From Escherichia coli (GTDB lineage Bacteria; Pseudomonadota; Gammaproteobacteria; Enterobacterales; Enterobacteriaceae): a stretch of DNA of 64,000 bases. A program made the position numbers and the translations under genes. This document shows positions 16,022-56,476 of the stretch, in pieces. The stretch lies in NCBI RefSeq assembly GCF_009931435.1, contig NZ_CP043414.1. One strand, written 5' to 3'. The notes beneath the pieces are model-generated. The model did not search any database and was not told the DNA's origin. It worked only from the letters and a program-made list of their open reading frames with translations. Every line of letters begins with the position of its first letter. Position 1 is the first letter of the stretch.

Positions 16022-16672
16022 ATGACCCGCACACTCAAGCCGTTAATTCTTAACACCGGCGCACTGGCGCTAACGTTAATCCTGATTTATACCGGCATTT
16101 CGGCCAATGACAAACTCACCTGGCTGATGGAAGTGACACCGGTGATTATTGTCGTGCCGCTACTGCTTGCCACCGCCAGACGTTACCCGTTAACGCCGCT
16201 GCTCTATACGCTCATTTTCTTTCATGCCATCATCCTGATGGTCGGCGGGCAATACACCTACGCGAAAGTCCCCGTTGGTTTTGAGGTGCAGGAATGGCTG
16301 GGGTTGAGCCGTAATCCGTATGACAAGCTGGGGCATTTTTTCCAGGGGCTGGTGCCTGCACTGGTGGCGCGAGAAATTCTCGTTCGCGGGATGTACGTGC
16401 ACGGACGTAAAATGGTGGCGTTTCTGGTCTGCTGCGTGGCGCTGGCGATAAGCGCGATGTATGAATTAATCGAGTGGTGGGCAGCGCTGGCAATGGGTCA
16501 GGGAGCGGATGATTTTCTCGGCACCCAGGGCGACCAGTGGGACACGCAATCCGATATGTTCTGCGCGCTGCTTGGCGCATTAACGACGGTGATATTCCTC
16601 GCTCGCTTTCATTGCCGCCAGCTACGGCGCTATGGCTTAATCACCAGAGCGCCGGAAGCGATTACCTCTTAA
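16022..16672 (+). CDS. yjdF: Inner-membrane protein YjdF; the 3' end may be altered at a deletion junction
   Basis: 216-aa membrane ORF matching YjdF over most of its length; its stop shares nucleotides with the melA stop on the opposite strand. Confidence 0.8.
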   Translation: MTRTLKPLILNTGALALTLILIYTGISANDKLTWLMEVTPVIIVVPLLLATARRYPLTPLLYTLIFFHAIILMVGGQYTYAKVPVGFEVQEWLGLSRNPYDKLGHFFQGLVPALVAREILVRGMYVHGRKMVAFLVCCVALAISAMYELIEWWAALAMGQGADDFLGTQGDQWDTQSDMFCALLGALTTVIFLARFHCRQLRRYGLITRAPEAITS

Positions 16673-26661: not shown

Positions 26662-27753
26662 ATGCGTTTTCTGCGCCGACCAATATCGCTGCGCCAACGG
26701 CTGATATTGACCATCGGGGCCATTTTGTTGGTGTTTGAGCTGATCAGCGTCTTCTGGCTATGGCATGAAAGTACCGAGCAGATTCAGCTGTTTGAGCAGG
26801 CGCTACGCGACAATCGTAACAACGATCGCCACATCATGCGTGAGATCCGCGAGGCGGTCGCCAGCCTGATTGTCCCTGGCGTCTTTATGGTCAGCCTGAC
26901 GCTATTTATCTGCTATCAGGCGGTACGCCGCATCACCCGCCCGCTGGCGGAGCTGCAAAAAGAGCTGGAAGCGCGCACCGCCGACAACTTAACGCCCATT
27001 GCCATTCACAGCGCCACCCTCGAAATCGAAGCGGTGGTTTCAGCGTTAAACGATCTGGTCAGTCGCCTGACCAACACGCTGGATAACGAAAGGTTGTTTA
27101 CCGCTGACGTCGCGCACGAACTGCGAACGCCACTGGCGGGGGTGCGTTTGCATCTGGAACTGCTGGCGAAAACGCATCACATTGATGTAGCACCGTTAGT
27201 GGCACGACTTGATCAGATGATGGAGAGTGTCTCCCAGCTACTGCAACTGGCGCGTGCCGGACAGTCATTTTCTTCCGGTAATTATCAACATGTAAAACTG
27301 CTGGAAGATGTCATTCTCCCCTCGTATGACGAACTCAGTACCATGCTCGACCAGCGCCAGCAAACCCTGCTATTACCAGAGAGCGCCGCCGACATCATCG
27401 TTCAGGGTGATGCAACCCTGCTGCGGATGTTATTGCGAAACCTGGTAGAAAATGCCCATCGTTACAGCCCGCAAGGCAGCAACATTATGATTAAGCTGCA
27501 AGAAGATGGCGGAGCGGTCATGGCCGTTGAAGATGAAGGACCGGGTATTGATGAGAGTAAATGCGGGGAGTTGAGTAAAGCGTTTGTACGTATGGACAGC
27601 CGTTATGGCGGGATTGGTCTGGGGTTAAGTATTGTCAGCCGCATTACACAGTTGCATCACGGGCAGTTTTTCCTGCAAAACCGGCAAGAGACTTCTGGCA
27701 CACGGGCCTGGATACGGCTGAAAAAAGATCAGTACGTGGCAAACCAGATATAA
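26662..27753 (+). CDS. basS: Sensor histidine kinase BasS/PmrB
   Basis: 363 aa from the ATG at 26662 (MRFLRRPISLRQRLILTIGAILLV...); the ORF track begins 9 nt upstream at a TTG. Confidence 0.9.
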   Translation: MRFLRRPISLRQRLILTIGAILLVFELISVFWLWHESTEQIQLFEQALRDNRNNDRHIMREIREAVASLIVPGVFMVSLTLFICYQAVRRITRPLAELQKELEARTADNLTPIAIHSATLEIEAVVSALNDLVSRLTNTLDNERLFTADVAHELRTPLAGVRLHLELLAKTHHIDVAPLVARLDQMMESVSQLLQLARAGQSFSSGNYQHVKLLEDVILPSYDELSTMLDQRQQTLLLPESAADIIVQGDATLLRMLLRNLVENAHRYSPQGSNIMIKLQEDGGAVMAVEDEGPGIDESKCGELSKAFVRMDSRYGGIGLGLSIVSRITQLHHGQFFLQNRQETSGTRAWIRLKKDQYVANQI

Positions 27754-27818
27754 AGAAAGCTGCTGACCACCAGCACGCTGAACACGGTAGTTAAACTTTC
27801 ATAAACACGGTTTTTCAT
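27729..27818 (-). CDS. pmrR: PmrR small membrane protein (29 aa), antisense to and overlapping the 3' end of basS
   Basis: Minus-strand translation MKNRVYESLTTVFSVLVVSSFLYIWFATY* matches PmrR as I recall it; below the ORF-track cutoff. Confidence 0.75.
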   Translation of the reverse strand: MKNRVYESLTTVFSVLVVSSFLYIWFATY

Positions 27819-27929
27819 TGCACTCTCCTCCGTTAACCTGGAGGAGAGTATGCGCGTCAGAGATTAAGTGAACCTTAAGAGTTCAATTGGCCTGATAAGA
27901 CAGCGTCACATCAGGCCATCCGTTTCAGC

Positions 27930-33559: not shown

Positions 33560-33715
33560 GCACATGATCGGTAGGCCGGATAAGGCGCTCGCGCCGCATC
33601 CGGCTACGGTGCCGACTGCCTGATGCGACGCTCGCGCGTCTTATCAGGCCTACAAATTCTCGCACCATCCGGCAACGGTGCCTAATGCGACGCTTACCGA
33701 GTCTTATCAGCCCCC
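33560..33715. repeat. BIME/REP cluster of several palindromic units
   Basis: Repeated gcctgatgcgacgc...gtcttatcaggcctac and ggtaggccggataaggcg...ccgcatccggc motifs typical of enterobacterial REP elements. Confidence 0.85.
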
Positions 33716-35164: not shown

Positions 35165-36181
35165 ATGAACGCTAAGATAATTGCCTCGCTGGCCTTCACC
35201 AGCATGTTCAGCCTCAGCACCCTGTTCAGCCCGGCACACGCCGAAGAGCAGGAAAAGGCGCTGAATTTCGGCATTATTTCAACGGAATCACAGCAAAACC
35301 TGAAACCGCAATGGACGCCTTTCCTGCAAGATATGGAGAAGAAACTGGGCGTAAAGGTCAACGCCTTCTTTGCTCCGGACTACGCGGGCATTATCCAGGG
35401 GATGCGCTTCAATAAAGTGGATATCGCCTGGTACGGCAATCTGTCGGCGATGGAAGCGGTGGATCGCGCCAACGGTCAGGTCTTCGCCCAGACGGTCGCG
35501 GCGGATGGATCGCCGGGTTACTGGAGCGTGTTGATCGTCAACAAAGACAGTCCGATCAACAACCTGAACGATCTGCTGGCGAAGCGTAAAGATCTCACCT
35601 TTGGCAATGGCGATCCTAACTCCACCTCTGGCTTCCTCGTCCCCGGCTACTACGTCTTCGCCAAAAACAATATCTCCGCCAGCGACTTCAAGCGCACCGT
35701 CAACGCCGGGCATGAAACCAACGCGCTGGCCGTCGCCAACAAGCAGGTGGATGTGGCGACCAACAACACCGAGAACCTCGACAAGCTGAAAACCTCCGCA
35801 CCGGAGAAGCTCAAAGAACTGAAGGTGATCTGGAAATCGCCGCTGATCCCAGGCGATCCGATCGTCTGGCGCAAAAATCTTTCCGAAACCACCAAAGACA
35901 AGATCTACGACTTCTTTATGAACTACGGCAAAACGCCGGAAGAGAAAGCGGTGCTGGAGCGCCTGGGCTGGGCCCCGTTCCGCGCCTCCAGCGACCTGCA
36001 ACTGGTGCCAATTCGCCAGCTCGCGCTGTTTAAAGAGATGCAGGGCGTGAAAGGCAATAAGGGACTGAATGAGCAGGACAAGCTGGCAAAAACCACCGCC
36101 ATTCAGGCGCAACTGGATGATTTGGACCGCCTGAACAACGCGTTAAGCGCAATGAGTTCGGTGAGTAAAGCGGTGCAGTAA
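35165..36181 (+). CDS. phnD: Phosphonate ABC transporter periplasmic binding protein
   Basis: 338-aa ORF with N-terminal signal peptide; matches PhnD. Confidence 0.95.
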   Translation: MNAKIIASLAFTSMFSLSTLFSPAHAEEQEKALNFGIISTESQQNLKPQWTPFLQDMEKKLGVKVNAFFAPDYAGIIQGMRFNKVDIAWYGNLSAMEAVDRANGQVFAQTVAADGSPGYWSVLIVNKDSPINNLNDLLAKRKDLTFGNGDPNSTSGFLVPGYYVFAKNNISASDFKRTVNAGHETNALAVANKQVDVATNNTENLDKLKTSAPEKLKELKVIWKSPLIPGDPIVWRKNLSETTKDKIYDFFMNYGKTPEEKAVLERLGWAPFRASSDLQLVPIRQLALFKEMQGVKGNKGLNEQDKLAKTTAIQAQLDDLDRLNNALSAMSSVSKAVQ

Positions 36182-36187
36182 TGTGCT

Positions 36188-36295
36188 CGATCGGTCCCCT
36201 CTCCCTTGAGGGAGAGGGTTAGGGTGAGGGGGGAAATACGCACGCTGATGCCCTCACCCCGGCCCTCTCCTACAGGGAGAGGGAGAAAACATTAA
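36188..36295. repeat. GC-rich nested palindromic element between phnD and phnE (family not assigned)
   Basis: Three inverted-repeat pairs: cccctctccc/gggagaggg, agggtgagggg/ccctcacccc, ccctctcc/gggagaggg. Confidence 0.6.
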
Positions 36296-36307
36296 ACGGA
36301 GCCAAAC

Positions 36308-41524: not shown

Positions 41525-41535
41525 GCCTTGCTTGT

Positions 41536-41690
41536 GTCGGGTGGCGCTGCGCTTACCCGACCTACGGTACATGTAGGCCGGATAAGGCGTAGCCGCCATC
41601 CGGCTTATCAGGCCTACAAAACCATCGTAATACATTGATATTGATTCATTTGTAGGCCGGATAAGGCGCAGCCGCCATCCGGCAAAAACA
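41536..41690. repeat. BIME/REP cluster inside the phn operon, between phnK and phnL
   Basis: Tandem/inverted copies of gtaggccggataaggcg...ccgccatccggc and ttatcaggcctac REP motifs. Confidence 0.85.
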
Positions 41691-41703
41691 CGAAGAGGCC
41701 AAA

Positions 41704-45666: not shown

Positions 45667-45984
45667 TCAATTTTTCCGCTGCTCTATTGCCGTAATCGCC
45701 TCCACGCGTTGTTGATGACGACCGCCTTCGTACTGCGCGCCCAGCCACGCATCCACAATCATTTTTGCCAGTTCGAGGCCAACCACTCGTGAACCAAAAG
45801 CCAGTGCAACTTCACTGGCGTAATGCGGATAATCAGTGCGCTCTGACGACCTGGTTTCTTTATCAATCCCCTCACTCATTGACCATGAATAAAAGGCTGG
45901 CACAGCAACGCAGAATCCTGCGGTGCCAGCGACATGACCGCCCATTGCTCCGGTACGTTTTTTAATAAGAAACACCGGTTGCAT
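45667..45984 (-). pseudogene. rpiB: rpiB-like remnant: the C-terminal ~45 residues and a short N-proximal block match ribose-5-phosphate isomerase B, but the central part is missing and the N-terminus is diverged
   Basis: Translation ...ETRSSERTDYPHYASEVALAFGSRVVGLELAKMIVDAWLGAQYEGGRHQQRVEAITAIEQRKN matches RpiB segments as I recall them, but the ORF is 105 aa against ~149 aa for RpiB, with no match to the central catalytic region. Confidence 0.55.
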
Positions 45985-46236
45985 TGATTAATTGTGCTCA
46001 GTATTTGCCGAAGTACAATATATATAATAAATATATAAAACACCTCATATTATTTACAGAGATAATAAATTCGCGTACTTTTCCCTCTTCAGCACAAATG
46101 CCTAATAAAATGGCTCGTTCCGCTCACACTTCCACTTATTAAAATCGCAATTTCCCAATTATGATAACGCCAGCTTTAAATGACGTATTTTGCATGGATT
46201 ACATATTTACGACACAAATGATAAATGGAGATTTAT

Positions 46237-53270: not shown

Positions 53271-53399
53271 AATGTCAGCCGCGTGATGGCTGTCACGCGG
53301 TATTTCGTTTCGTCACGTCAAAACTGACGACAGCCTGTTTTTCGTCAGAGTTTTGAACAAATAGTGCCCGTAATATCAGGGAATGACCCCAAATAAAAT

Positions 53400-53416
53400 G
53401 TGGCATAAAAGATGCA
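53400..53416 (+). promoter_or_regulatory. Sigma54 (-24/-12) promoter of fdhF
   Basis: TGGCATaaaagaTGCAT matches the TGGCAC-N5-TTGCA consensus, about 50 bp upstream of the fdhF ATG; upstream repeats (gtcaaaactgacga ... cgtcagagttttgaac) are consistent with an FhlA UAS. Confidence 0.6.
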
Positions 53417-53467
53417 TACTGTAGTCGAGAGCGCGTATGCGTGATTTGATTAACTGGAGCGAGACCG

Positions 53468-55615
53468 ATGAAAAAAGTCGTCACGGTTTGCCCCTATTGC
53501 GCATCAGGTTGCAAAATCAACCTGGTCGTCGATAACGGCAAAATCGTCCGGGCGGAGGCAGCGCAGGGCAAAACCAACCAGGGTACCCTGTGTCTGAAGG
53601 GGTATTATGGCTGGGATTTCATTAACGATACCCAGATCCTGACCCCGCGCCTGAAAACCCCCATGATTCGTCGCCAGCGTGGCGGCAAACTCGAACCTGT
53701 TTCCTGGGATGAGGCACTGAATTACGTTGCCGAGCGCCTGAGCGCCATCAAAGAGAAGTACGGTCCGGATGCCATCCAGACGACCGGCTCCTCGCGTGGT
53801 ACGGGTAACGAAACCAACTATGTAATGCAAAAATTTGCGCGCGCCGTTATTGGTACCAATAACGTTGATTGCTGCGCTCGTGTCTGACACGGCCCATCGG
53901 TTGCAGGTCTGCACCAATCGGTCGGTAATGGCGCAATGAGCAATGCTATTAACGAAATTGATAATACCGATTTAGTGTTCGTTTTCGGGTACAACCCGGC
54001 GGATTCCCACCCTATCGTGGCGAATCACGTAATTAACGCTAAACGTAACGGGGCGAAAATTATCGTCTGCGATCCGCGCAAAATTGAAACCGCGCGCATT
54101 GCTGACATGCACATTGCACTGAAAAACGGCTCGAATATCGCGCTGTTGAATGCAATGGGCCATGTCATTATTGAAGAAAATCTGTACGACAAAGCGTTCG
54201 TCGCTTCCCGTACAGAAGGCTTTGAAGAGTATCGTAAAATCGTTGAAGGCTACACGCCAGAGTCGGTTGAAGATATCACCGGCGTCAGCGCCAGTGAGAT
54301 TCGTCAGGCGGCGCGGATGTATGCCCAGGCGAAAAGCGCCGCCATCCTGTGGGGCATGGGTGTAACCCAGTTCTACCAGGGCGTGGAAACCGTGCGTTCT
54401 CTGACCAGCCTCGCGATGCTGACCGGTAACCTCGGTAAGCCGCATGCGGGTGTAAACCCGGTTCGTGGGCAAAACAACGTGCAGGGTGCCTGCGATATGG
54501 GCGCGCTGCCAGATACTTACCCTGGCTACCAGTACGTGAAAGATCCGGCTAACCGCGAGAAATTCGCCAAAGCCTGGGGTGTAGAGAGTCTGCCAGCACA
54601 TACCGGTTATCGCATCAGCGAGCTACCGCATCGCGCAGCGCATGGTGAAGTGCGTGCCGCGTACATTATGGGCGAAGATCCGCTACAAACTGACGCGGAG
54701 CTGTCGGCAGTACGTAAAGCCTTTGAAGATCTGGAACTGGTCATCGTTCAGGACATCTTTATGACCAAAACCGCGTCGGCGGCGGATGTCATTTTACCGT
54801 CAACGTCGTGGGGCGAGCATGAAGGCGTGTTTACTGCGGCTGACCGTGGCTTCCAGCGTTTCTTCAAAGCAGTTGAACCGAAATGGGATCTGAAAACGGA
54901 CTGGCAGATTATCAGTGAAATCGCCACCCGTATGGGTTATCCGATGCACTACAACAACACCCAGGAGATCTGGGATGAGTTGCGTCATCTGTGCCCGGAT
55001 TTCTACGGTGCGACTTACGAGAAAATGGGCGAACTGGGCTTCATTCAGTGGCCTTGTCGCGATACTTCAGATGCCGATCAGGGGACTTCTTATCTGTTTA
55101 AAGAGAAGTTTGATACTCCGAACGGTCTGGCGCAGTTCTTCACCTGCGACTGGGTAGCGCCAATCGACAAACTCACCGACGAGTATCCGATGGTACTGTC
55201 AACGGTGCGTGAAGTCGGTCACTACTCTTGCCGTTCGATGACCGGTAACTGTGCGGCACTGGCGGCGCTGGCTGATGAACCTGGCTACGCACAAATCAAT
55301 ACCGAAGACGCCAAACGTCTGGGTATTGAAGATGAGGCATTGGTTTGGGTGCACTCGCGTAAAGGCAAAATTATCACCCGTGCGCAGGTCAGCGATCGTC
55401 CGAACAAAGGGGCGATTTACATGACCTACCAGTGGTGGATTGGTGCCTGTAACGAGCTGGTTACCGAAAACTTAAGCCCGATTACGAAAACGCCGGAATA
55501 CAAATACTGCGCCGTGCGCGTCGAGCCGATCGCCGATCAGCGCGCCGCCGAGCAGTACGTGATTGACGAGTACAACAAGTTGAAAACTCGCCTGCGCGAA
55601 GCGGCACTGGCGTAA
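53468..55615 (+). CDS. fdhF: Formate dehydrogenase H (selenocysteine- and molybdopterin-containing); in-frame UGA at 53885-53887 decoded as Sec
   Basis: Two ORF-track fragments (53468-53887, 53936-55615) are in the same frame and joined by a single TGA; flanking sequence ...NNVDCCARV-U-HGPSVAGLHQSVGNGAMSNAINE... matches FdhF around Sec140. Confidence 0.95.
53885..53932 (+). promoter_or_regulatory. SECIS stem-loop directing SelB-dependent selenocysteine insertion at the fdhF UGA
   Basis: UGA followed immediately by cacggcccatcggttgcaggtctgcaccaatcggtcggtaatggcg, matching the canonical fdhF SECIS hairpin (loop GGUC). Confidence 0.9.
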
Positions 55616-55629
55616 TACAGTCCTTTCTA

Positions 55630-55658
55630 CAGCCTCCTTTCGGAGGCTGTTTTTTTAT
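55630..55658 (+). terminator. Rho-independent terminator after fdhF
   Basis: acagcctcc / ggaggctgt inverted repeat followed by T7. Confidence 0.8.
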
Positions 55659-56398: not shown

Positions 56399-56440
56399 TG
56401 TAGGCCTGATAAGACGCGGCAAGCGTCGCATCAGGCATCC
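56399..56440. repeat. Single REP element between yjcO and gltP
   Basis: gtaggcctgataagacgcggcaagcgtcgcatcaggc matches the REP consensus. Confidence 0.8.
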
Positions 56441-56476
56441 ACACATTGCCGGGTGTATGTCCCCGGCAATCCTCAA

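Follow-up and report, generated by a model that had tools for sequence, protein, structure and literature searches.

At positions 53468–55615 of the 64-kb window (the whole stretch of DNA that was analysed) lies what is almost certainly the intact fdhF gene of an E. coli-type chromosome, encoding formate dehydrogenase H, with the UGA at codon 140 read as selenocysteine. The evidence consists of the anatomy of the sequence, its identity to a gene characterised by experiment, and the conservation and compensatory changes seen among relatives. SelB binding, Sec insertion, and dependence on FhlA and sigma-54 would follow from published work on the same sequence in E. coli. fdhF is the founding example of bacterial selenocysteine recoding, with genetics, biochemistry and structure done over decades. 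The gene described here, with its UGA and SECIS, is that textbook E. coli gene, already known and with nothing new about it, and its presence in another E. coli-type chromosome raises no new question. The features of the locus are collected in Table 1.

Table 1. Features of the fdhF locus, in coordinates of the window
Feature	Position	Strand	Basis
Candidate enhancer-like element, TCGTCACGTCAAAACTGACGA (53310–53330) and a further TTTCGTCAG (53340–53348)	53310..53348	+	Uniqueness in the window, conservation across species, position
Sigma-54 (-24/-12) element, GTGGCATAAAAGATGCA; GG at 53402–53403, GC at 53414–53415	53400..53416	+	Identity to ChIP-seq site, conservation
Shine-Dalgarno sequence GGAG, 8 nt ahead of the ATG	53456..53459	+	Direct reading of the sequence
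fdhF CDS, 715 aa and stop codon	53468..55615	+	One internal TGA, identity to PDB entries, TIGR01591
SECIS (Rfam, 55 nt), encodes Arg138 to Ala156, overlaps the UGA	53880..53934	+	RF01988 match; pairing in 42 sequences
UGA codon 140, recoded as selenocysteine	53885..53887	+	Alignment with X140; position set by Rfam SECIS_2
Minimal SelB-binding upper stem-loop, GGUUGCAGGUCUGCACC, nt 15–31 counted from the U of the UGA	53899..53915	+	Definition in PMC8659212; invariance and compensatory changes
Intrinsic terminator: 9-bp stem ACAGCCTCC/GGAGGCTGT, TTTC loop, then seven T; 14 nt past the stop codon	55629..55657	+	Terminator scan and direct reading

Reading frame and product

Translation of the whole 2148-nt stretch on the plus strand gives a single frame of 716 codons, in which the TGA of codon 140 is the sole internal stop and the terminal codon is a TAA at 55613–55615; no frameshift or second internal stop was found in this frame. 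The list of open reading frames breaks the gene into two pieces, 53468..53887 (+, 139 aa) and 53936..55615 (+, 559 aa), both in the same frame. The second piece begins at an internal ATG (Met157, 53936) only because the program that lists ORFs requires a start codon; the reading frame itself is already open from 53888. The original prediction had described two fragments of one frame separated by one TGA, and both the list and the translation agree with this description.

The predicted 715-aa product is the same as E. coli formate dehydrogenase H (PDB: 1aa6) at every residue other than codon 140, and there the UGA aligns with selenocysteine X140 of the structure. The identity over residues 1–715 holds also for PDB entries 1fdo, 2iv2 and 7z0t. 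In the NCBIfam collection, the equivalog model for Fdh-alpha, TIGR01591, matches the product with 1095.7 bits against a cut-off of 666.25, covering profile positions 1–672 of 672, whereas the FDH-N model, TIGR01553, scores 249 bits, under its cut-off of 814. The 715-aa selenoprotein that had been proposed is thus the protein of the solved FDH-H structure, with Sec at position 140. Residues C8, C11, C15, C42, U140, H141 and R333 can all be read from the sequence; we take the four cysteines to be those of the N-terminal [4Fe-4S] cluster, and Sec140, His141 and Arg333 presumably make up the active site, as in the FDH-H structure.

In RefSeq, K-12 and the closest genome each have the orthologous 2148-nt stretch annotated as one fdhF CDS that is not a pseudogene, and the region was found in 5418 of the 5426 complete E. 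coli genomes. The correct annotation of fdhF is a single 715-aa selenoprotein that carries a translation exception at codon 140, not two fragments or a pseudogene.

Divergence from K-12 and gene neighbourhood

The fdhF CDS differs from that of K-12 (b4079) at 41 positions, all of them synonymous third positions, five before the UGA and 36 after it; 20 of these differences cluster in codons 329–393. With every one of the 41 synonymous, before the UGA as well as after it, purifying selection acts on the protein encoded by each piece. Not a single base differs from K-12 in 53870–54012. The intergenic region upstream has a further three differences (53277, 53358 and 53392), and there is one downstream (53619). 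The UGA, the SECIS, the -24/-12 element and the inverted repeat are all spared, and the protein, the surroundings of the SECIS and the sigma-54 element are the same as in K-12.

These observations bear on the view that fdhF is a pseudogene, in which a nonsense mutation struck codon 140 and the frame downstream is a decaying remnant. Such a view takes its plausibility from the mechanical ORF call, with its 139-aa and 559-aa pieces; it has to contend, however, with the presence of the same TGA at the same codon of the characterised E. coli gene, where the solved structure has Sec, and with the exact SECIS that directly follows this TGA. The downstream differences from K-12, synonymous in 36 of 36 cases, are unlike those of a decaying remnant, and RefSeq calls the orthologues intact. 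We regard the pseudogene reading as extremely improbable and effectively refuted.

The neighbours of fdhF are arranged as in K-12, with mdtP upstream and yjcO downstream, and the 64 kb as a whole are syntenic with K-12 positions 4288271–4360000. The melB gene and the als operon are absent relative to K-12; these are ordinary polymorphisms, with both junctions common to more than 1200 complete E. coli genomes. A search of the 64-kb window for tRNA genes, selC included, found none, and synteny with K-12, together with this lack of a tRNA gene, places selA, selB, selC, selD, fhlA and rpoN outside the window.

A strain might carry an intact gene with intact signals and yet have lost selABCD, fhlA or the hyc/hyp partners, so that translation would simply end at the UGA and yield nothing beyond the 139-aa fragment. 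None of these genes lies within the 64-kb window, and even the top match of this lineage among the complete E. coli genomes compared reaches no more than 98.1% identity, over 24.5 kb. Purely synonymous divergence over 715 codons, with SECIS and promoter unchanged, argues instead for ongoing selection on the full-length protein; selection on full-length FdhF requires the machinery, and any loss must therefore have been very recent. Loss of the machinery seems to us very unlikely.

The SECIS element

The Rfam model SECIS_2 (RF01988) matches the region of the UGA over model positions 1–55 with 87.1 bits (gathering score 70, E = 1.4e-18), a score that, with the model built from enterobacterial fdhF, shows the identity of the sequence and not independent structure. 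The related SECIS_3 model reaches only 35.8 bits, against a threshold of 63. The minimal SECIS has been defined as 17 nt located 11 nt from the UGA, with U17, G23 and U24 essential (PMC8659212). This published 17-nt element, GGUUGCAGGUCUGCACC, sits 11 nt past the UGA in the window and has all three nucleotides in place: the bulged U17 is at 53901, and G23 (53907) and U24 (53908) are within the apical loop GGUC (53906–53909). The canonical fdhF SECIS that had been recognised after the UGA is borne out by both the RF01988 score and the minimal element. An fdhF fragment comprising amino acids 130–179 directs 30–40% Sec recoding in vivo, in a SECIS- and selenium-dependent manner (PMC4513850), and the protein sequence of residues 130–179 encoded here is the same as that of this fragment.

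A stable hairpin had also been expected in 53885–53932. Folding of this segment does give a hairpin, with a minimum free energy of -14.9 kcal/mol, but the stability is no better than that of shuffled sequences (-13.15 +/- 2.62 kcal/mol, z -0.67, with 49 of 200 shuffles folding as well), so that the hairpin stands and its special stability does not. Hairpin stability alone is a weak test that does not discriminate, and being more stable than composition predicts is not a formal defining feature of RF01988. RNAalifold, applied de novo to an alignment of 42 sequences, did not recover the SECIS and returned another, weak structure of -4.31 kcal/mol with no compensatory pairs. As neither folding nor RNAalifold was informative, we assessed the published structure by counting its pairs, with controls made by sliding and by shuffling.

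Pairing in related sequences

The window and 81 species-level genomes contributed 42 distinct sequences to the alignment. The scan for relatives demanded the TGA and flanking codons, and the UGA and columns 1, 3, 4, 6–10, 12 and 13 are conserved by construction. About 39 further matches of the scan, in unrelated taxa, were discarded as chance, being surrounded by stops or lacking an FdhF-like context.

The published pairing is kept in 90.5% of the cells of the 42-sequence alignment, compared with 22–47% when the partners are slid. Cells changed on both sides number 19, against 5.5 +/- 1.8 in shuffles, and none of 500 shuffles reaches 19. The compensatory changes are GC to UA at nt 15–31 and UA to AU at nt 18–29, and almost all come from one clade, the Pasteurellaceae, so that they amount to about one evolutionary event per pair. 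Pair counts favour a bulged U17 over a bulged U18, and neither U17 nor the GGUC loop varies in any of the 42 distinct sequences.

In the Pasteurellaceae, the substitutions His149 to Leu and Gln150 to Lys alter the hairpin at nt 29 and nt 31. Both pairs are restored by third-position changes, themselves synonymous, in the codons of Ser145 (nt 15) and Val146 (nt 18), and U17 stays as the bulge. It is fairly probable, in our view, that codons 145–150 are under dual constraint, the protein and the RNA signal having co-evolved. Separately, the patch of 20 synonymous differences in codons 329–393 may be an imported recombinant segment of this lineage. Neither dual constraint nor a recombinant segment, if true, changes the identity of the fdhF locus.

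Invariance of the signal is also relevant to the idea that ribosomes pass the UGA by SECIS-independent near-cognate readthrough, inserting Trp or Cys, rather than by SelB-mediated insertion of Sec. Low-level misreading of UGA independent of SECIS is a recognised background, and the dual-luciferase study had a SECIS-less control construct (PMC4513850). Against this, the same study found recoding of the fdhF fragment to be SECIS- and selenium-dependent, the solved protein of identical sequence has Sec at position 140, and U17, G23, U24 and the 11-nt spacing are present in the window and invariant in the 42 distinct sequences. We give near-cognate readthrough a negligible chance, and SelB-mediated insertion of Sec is the preferred reading.

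Promoter and upstream region

Sigma-54 promoters need an enhancer-binding activator, which for fdhF of E. coli is the formate-activated FhlA. The sequence TGGCATAAAAGATGCA, at 53401–53416, fits the GG-N10-GC form of TGGCAC-N5-TTGCA. The window has no other match to TGGCA-N7-TGCA, and 1.18 are expected by chance; a single match proves nothing by count, and it is the identity to a mapped site and the conservation across species that do. The full element, GTGGCATAAAAGATGCA, is site OS41 (fdhF, b4079) of the E. coli sigma-54 ChIP-seq map (PMC4591121), and the sigma-54 site of Salmonella fdhF is TGGCATAAAACATGCATA (PMC3844500). A sigma54-type promoter had been placed about 50 bp upstream of the gene; the element lies 52–68 nt from the ATG and is the same as the ChIP-seq site, in rough agreement with that placement. 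Transcription probably starts near 53427, which would give a 5' UTR of about 41 nt. Dependence of fdhF on rpoN and fhlA, and its anaerobic induction by formate, are known in E. coli and Salmonella (PMC11291172, PMC3844500).

Among 74 species-level fdhF loci, TGGCA-N7-TGC[AT] occurs within 350 nt upstream of the gene in 52. The palindrome CGTCA-AAAC-TGACG, or CGTCAAAACTGACG, is found at 53316–53329, inside TCGTCACGTCAAAACTGACGA and 78 nt upstream of the -24 element; CGTCA-N4-TGACG has one match in the window, against 0.12 expected. This inverted repeat is present in 49 of the 74 loci, with the sigma-54 element alongside in 49 of 49 and a modal spacing of 78 nt. From its position and from general knowledge of the fdhF upstream activating sequence (UAS), we take the region 53310–53348 to be the putative FhlA upstream activating sequence of fdhF, and the inverted repeat is, on the same grounds, a candidate FhlA site. 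The FhlA-binding sequence of fdhF is not given in PMC11291172 or PMC7658346.

Proposed mechanism

By analogy with the characterised E. coli gene, transcription of fdhF would start from the sigma-54 promoter at 53400–53416, driven by formate-activated FhlA, which would bind the conserved inverted repeat at 53310–53348, some 105 nt before the start site. A substantial share of ribosomes would not treat the UGA of codon 140 as a stop. The mRNA just 3' of the UGA would fold into the SECIS, whose upper stem-loop (53899–53915) would be bound by domain 4 of SelB; SelB, carrying Sec-tRNASec and GTP, would then deliver selenocysteine when the UGA occupies the A site. Ribosomes failing to insert Sec would be subject to release by RF2 and leave a 139-residue fragment. 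In the full-length protein, Sec140 would become the molybdenum ligand in the active site. FdhF is the catalytic subunit of formate hydrogenlyase, dependent on selenium and molybdenum, with Mo-bis-PGD, [4Fe-4S] and selenocysteine.

Comparison with known systems

The orthologues of fdhF in other Enterobacterales and in Pasteurellaceae share with the window the CARV-U-HGPSV context of Sec, the GGUC loop, the bulged U17 and the architecture of the hairpin. Pasteurellaceae have U15-A31 and A18-U29 where the window has G15-C31 and U18-A29, with residues 149–150 changed from HQ to LK, and in Morganellaceae, Hafnia and Edwardsiella, G30 breaks the G16-C30 pair. Most Enterobacterales share also the sigma-54 element and the upstream inverted repeat of the window, whereas in seven Pasteurellaceae loci, five of which were examined over just 200 nt upstream, the sigma-54 element was not found.

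Selenoproteins of the same broad family include FdnG and FdoG of E. coli and FdhA of Desulfovibrio, which, like FdhF, have the Mo/W-bis-PGD fold and an in-frame UGA for Sec at the homologous active-site position; among PDB entries, those with 'selenocysteine-containing' in the name match FdhF at E of about 1e-45. Unlike FdhF, FdnG, FdoG and Desulfovibrio FdhA are periplasmic, Tat-exported proteins of about 1000 aa, with other partners and other SECIS sequences.

The fdhF reading frame and its product

The gene for formate dehydrogenase H, fdhF (window 53468-55615, plus strand), is one frame of 716 codons, in which the sole internal stop is a TGA at 53885-53887 (codon 140) and the terminal codon is TAA (55613-55615). 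A mechanical ORF list divides this same frame into 139 aa (53468..53887) and 559 aa (53936..55615); the latter piece starts at Met157 because the ORF lister requires a start codon, and the 16 codons from the TGA to the Met157 ATG are all open. Translation of 53468-55615 reveals no further stop or frameshift between the pieces, and the original prediction of a single frame interrupted by one TGA holds.

The 715-aa product, searched with a placeholder residue at codon 140, matches the chain shared by PDB structures 1aa6, 1fdi, 1fdo, 2iv2 and 7z0t ('formate dehydrogenase H') at all residues bar 140, where the chain has X, the selenocysteine (Sec). Against NCBIfam TIGR01591 (Fdh-alpha equivalog), whose cut-off is 666, it reaches 1095.7 bits; with other molybdoenzyme models, including those for nitrate reductase and FDH-N, it stays far under the cut-offs. 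The four N-terminal iron-sulfur cysteines (C8, C11, C15, C42), His141 and Arg333 are present. Identity to the FDH-H chain with Sec at 140 bears out the predicted 715-aa selenoprotein; the observation on fdhF is confirmed, and its interpretation as a selenoprotein gene is supported.

Positions of features in the window
Feature	Position	Strand	Remark
Bulged U17	53901	+	minimal SECIS
Loop residues G23, U24	53907, 53908	+	minimal SECIS
Sigma-54 -24/-12 element GTGGCATAAAAGATGCA	53400-53416	+	GG and GC 10 nt apart
Conserved upstream block	53310-53348	+	includes palindrome CGTCAAAACTGACG at 53316-53329, further TTTCGTCAG
Shine-Dalgarno GGAG	53456-53459	+	read from sequence
Terminator	55629-55657	+	9-bp GC-rich hairpin and seven-T run; ends fdhF
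Terminator-like hairpin (10 bp)	53278-53301		directly after mdtP stop
STnc630 sRNA	27722-27887	-	182 bits (gathering score 55)
REP/BIME-type palindrome	33574-33650	+	extragenic
REP/BIME-type palindrome	56403-56468	-	extragenic
REP/BIME-type palindrome	41527-41695		extragenic
GC-rich imperfect palindromic repeat	36181-36297		between phnD and phnE
melB-less junction	16648-16669		between melA and yjdF
als/rpiB-less junction	45804-46013		between yjdP and yjcS

The SECIS element

Rfam family SECIS_2 (RF01988), one of just three Rfam families above threshold across the whole window, matches 53880-53934 over all 55 positions with 87.1 bits (gathering score 70, E 1.4e-18), a score that mainly reflects identity to the founding sequences of the family. 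Counting from the U of UGA, nt 15-31 are GGUUGCAGGUCUGCACC (53899-53915), which is the published 17-nt minimal SECIS, starting 11 nt past the UGA; SelB needs U17, G23 and U24 of this element (PMC8659212). The canonical fdhF SECIS is thus in place, with the published spacing. Folding of 53885-53932 does give a hairpin, at -14.9 kcal/mol, but shuffled sequences reach comparable values (z -0.67), and de novo RNAalifold on relatives returns another, weak structure instead of the SECIS hairpin; therefore, hairpin stability, the check put forward with the original prediction, is not decisive.

A species-level scan (one genome per species) with the pattern TGYGCNCGNGTNTGACAYGG (C-A-R-V-UGA-H-G) gave at least 120 loci. 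Among those listed, 81 are genuine fdhF with open frames on both sides, the rest being chance matches; the 81 come from Enterobacterales, Pasteurellaceae, two Coriobacteriales MAGs, one MAG that carries the label Desulfovibrio desulfuricans and two with no label finer than Proteobacteria. They supply 41 distinct 55-nt sequences; adding the window makes 42. In this alignment, 90.5% of cells are paired under the published structure, as compared to 22-47% after shifting the 3' partners by 1-3 columns. Both-side changes occupy 19 cells versus 5.5 +/- 1.8 in column shuffles (0/500 reach 19), though they are essentially single-clade (Pasteurellaceae) and therefore represent roughly one event for each pair. 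Among the informative changes, G15-C31 is replaced by U-A in 8 sequences and by U-G in 2, and U18-A29 by A-U in 8. The U17-bulged register beats the U18-bulged one, under which 10 cells at that pair stay unpaired. In 42/42 sequences, U17 and the GGUC loop are unchanged; the scan pattern itself imposes the UGA and, within columns 1-13, most positions.

In the Pasteurellaceae genes (loci L007, L023, L059, L062, L069, L087, L091 and L099 of the scan), residues 149-150 are LK, not HQ; this alters hairpin nt 29 and 31, and synonymous changes at nt 18 and 15, respectively, restore pairing. Morganellaceae, Hafnia and Edwardsiella, with QR at these two residues, lose the G16-C30 pair instead.

For a fragment of fdhF covering aa 130-179, recoding in vivo reached 30-40% and depended on the SECIS and on selenium (PMC4513850). 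The comparative test and these published experiments together make the SECIS assignment secure.

Divergence from K-12 and lineage

The fdhF coding sequence differs from K-12 at 41 sites (5 before the UGA, 36 after), all in third codon positions and all synonymous. There is no difference from K-12 in 53870-54012, a stretch that takes in the UGA and the SECIS together with their surroundings. Judged from sequence comparison, the 41/41 pattern is the signature of a full-length protein, translated and selected, rather than of a gene cut at codon 140.

Codons 329-393 (54454-54646) hold 20 of the 41 differences within 65 codons, and of the 14 differences from RMDEC465, the closest genome, 9 likewise lie in 54424-54631; this patch looks like recombination from a more divergent allele.

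The fdhF region is found in 5418/5426 complete E. coli genomes at 95-99% identity, with a single fdhF CDS annotated between mdtP and yjcO without a pseudogene flag. Its identity is 99.3% to strain RMDEC465, 98.15% to K-12, 96.7% to L037 (a genome that bears the label E. coli strain SCPM-O-B-8794) and 95.6% to E. albertii. The entire window aligns collinearly, in reverse orientation, with K-12 MG1655 4288271-4360000 (93.8-97.7% identity), and the best complete genome reaches 98.1% over the 24.5 kb of 39500-64000, the one long stretch for which all 5426 served as comparison. From these identities, the source is an E. coli-type chromosome of a lineage poorly represented among complete assemblies and without a close complete-genome representative.

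The phn region is the most divergent from K-12 (93.8-95.6%). Relative to K-12, the window is missing melB, the same junction occurring in 1264/5426 complete genomes and therefore being a common polymorphism, and the als operon (alsRBACEK) with most of rpiB, a junction common to 1568/5426.

Promoter and upstream region

The predicted sigma54-type promoter about 50 bp upstream was recovered as GTGGCATAAAAGATGCA, 52-68 nt upstream of the ATG. TGGCA-N7-TGCA has this one match in the window, with about one expected by chance, and the promoter call therefore rests on other grounds: GTGGCATAAAAGATGCA is identical to OS41, a sigma-54 ChIP-seq site attributed to fdhF and marked there as a confirmed promoter (PMC4591121); Salmonella has a near-identical site at fdhF, with expression listed as FhlA-dependent (PMC3844500); and the element lies upstream of fdhF in 52/74 species loci among the matches listed. 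Transcription starting near 53427 would leave a leader of 41 nt.

In a promoter-anchored alignment of relatives, a conserved block TCG(T/A)CACGTCA-N4-TGACGA is followed by TTTCGTCAG. The palindrome CGTCAAAACTGACG is unique in the window (0.12 expected), and the inverted repeat is found in 49/74 loci among the matches listed, always with the promoter and at nearly fixed spacing (mode 78 nt, as in the window), which is where a sigma-54 promoter would be expected to have its enhancer. The fdhF UAS lies near -110 and is bound by FhlA. We take the conserved block to be this putative FhlA site; by position and by what is known of fdhF, it is probably the FhlA enhancer.

The terminator-like hairpin after mdtP, just upstream of the enhancer region, has a GTCAC motif that many, not all, promoter-anchored relatives share at this relative position.

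Other repeats and RNAs

STnc630 is an enterobacterial Rfam sRNA. The REP/BIME set includes an naRNA4 match (99 bits) and, downstream of yjcO, a copy that scores below threshold (46 bits); the phnK-phnL gap holds an extra REP pair outside the K-12 alignment. The phnD-phnE repeat, with arms CCCTCTCCC...GGGAGAGGG / GGGTGAGGGG...CCCTCACCCC, likewise has no K-12 alignment and resembles a boxC-type intergenic repeat.

Expected selenocysteine insertion and known systems

The anatomy of the gene, its identity with the characterised one and its conservation across relatives are observed directly. In the established sel system, SelD makes selenophosphate, SelA converts Ser-tRNASec to Sec-tRNASec, SelB-GTP binds Sec-tRNASec via domains 1-3 and SECIS via domain 4, bringing Sec to the UGA, and RF2 terminates ribosomes that miss Sec insertion (PMC4513850). 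By analogy, SelB-GTP at the SECIS would deliver Sec to the fdhF UGA here, and ribosomes missing this step would be terminated by RF2. Transcription is expected to require sigma-54 and formate-activated FhlA (PMC11291172). The window contains no tRNA gene and, by synteny, none of selA, selB, selC, selD, fhlA and rpoN; purely synonymous divergence argues that the machinery is present or was very recently lost.

The feature is already known, fdhF being the textbook case of bacterial selenocysteine recoding. The sole practical consequence is to annotate one 715-aa selenoprotein, not two fragments.
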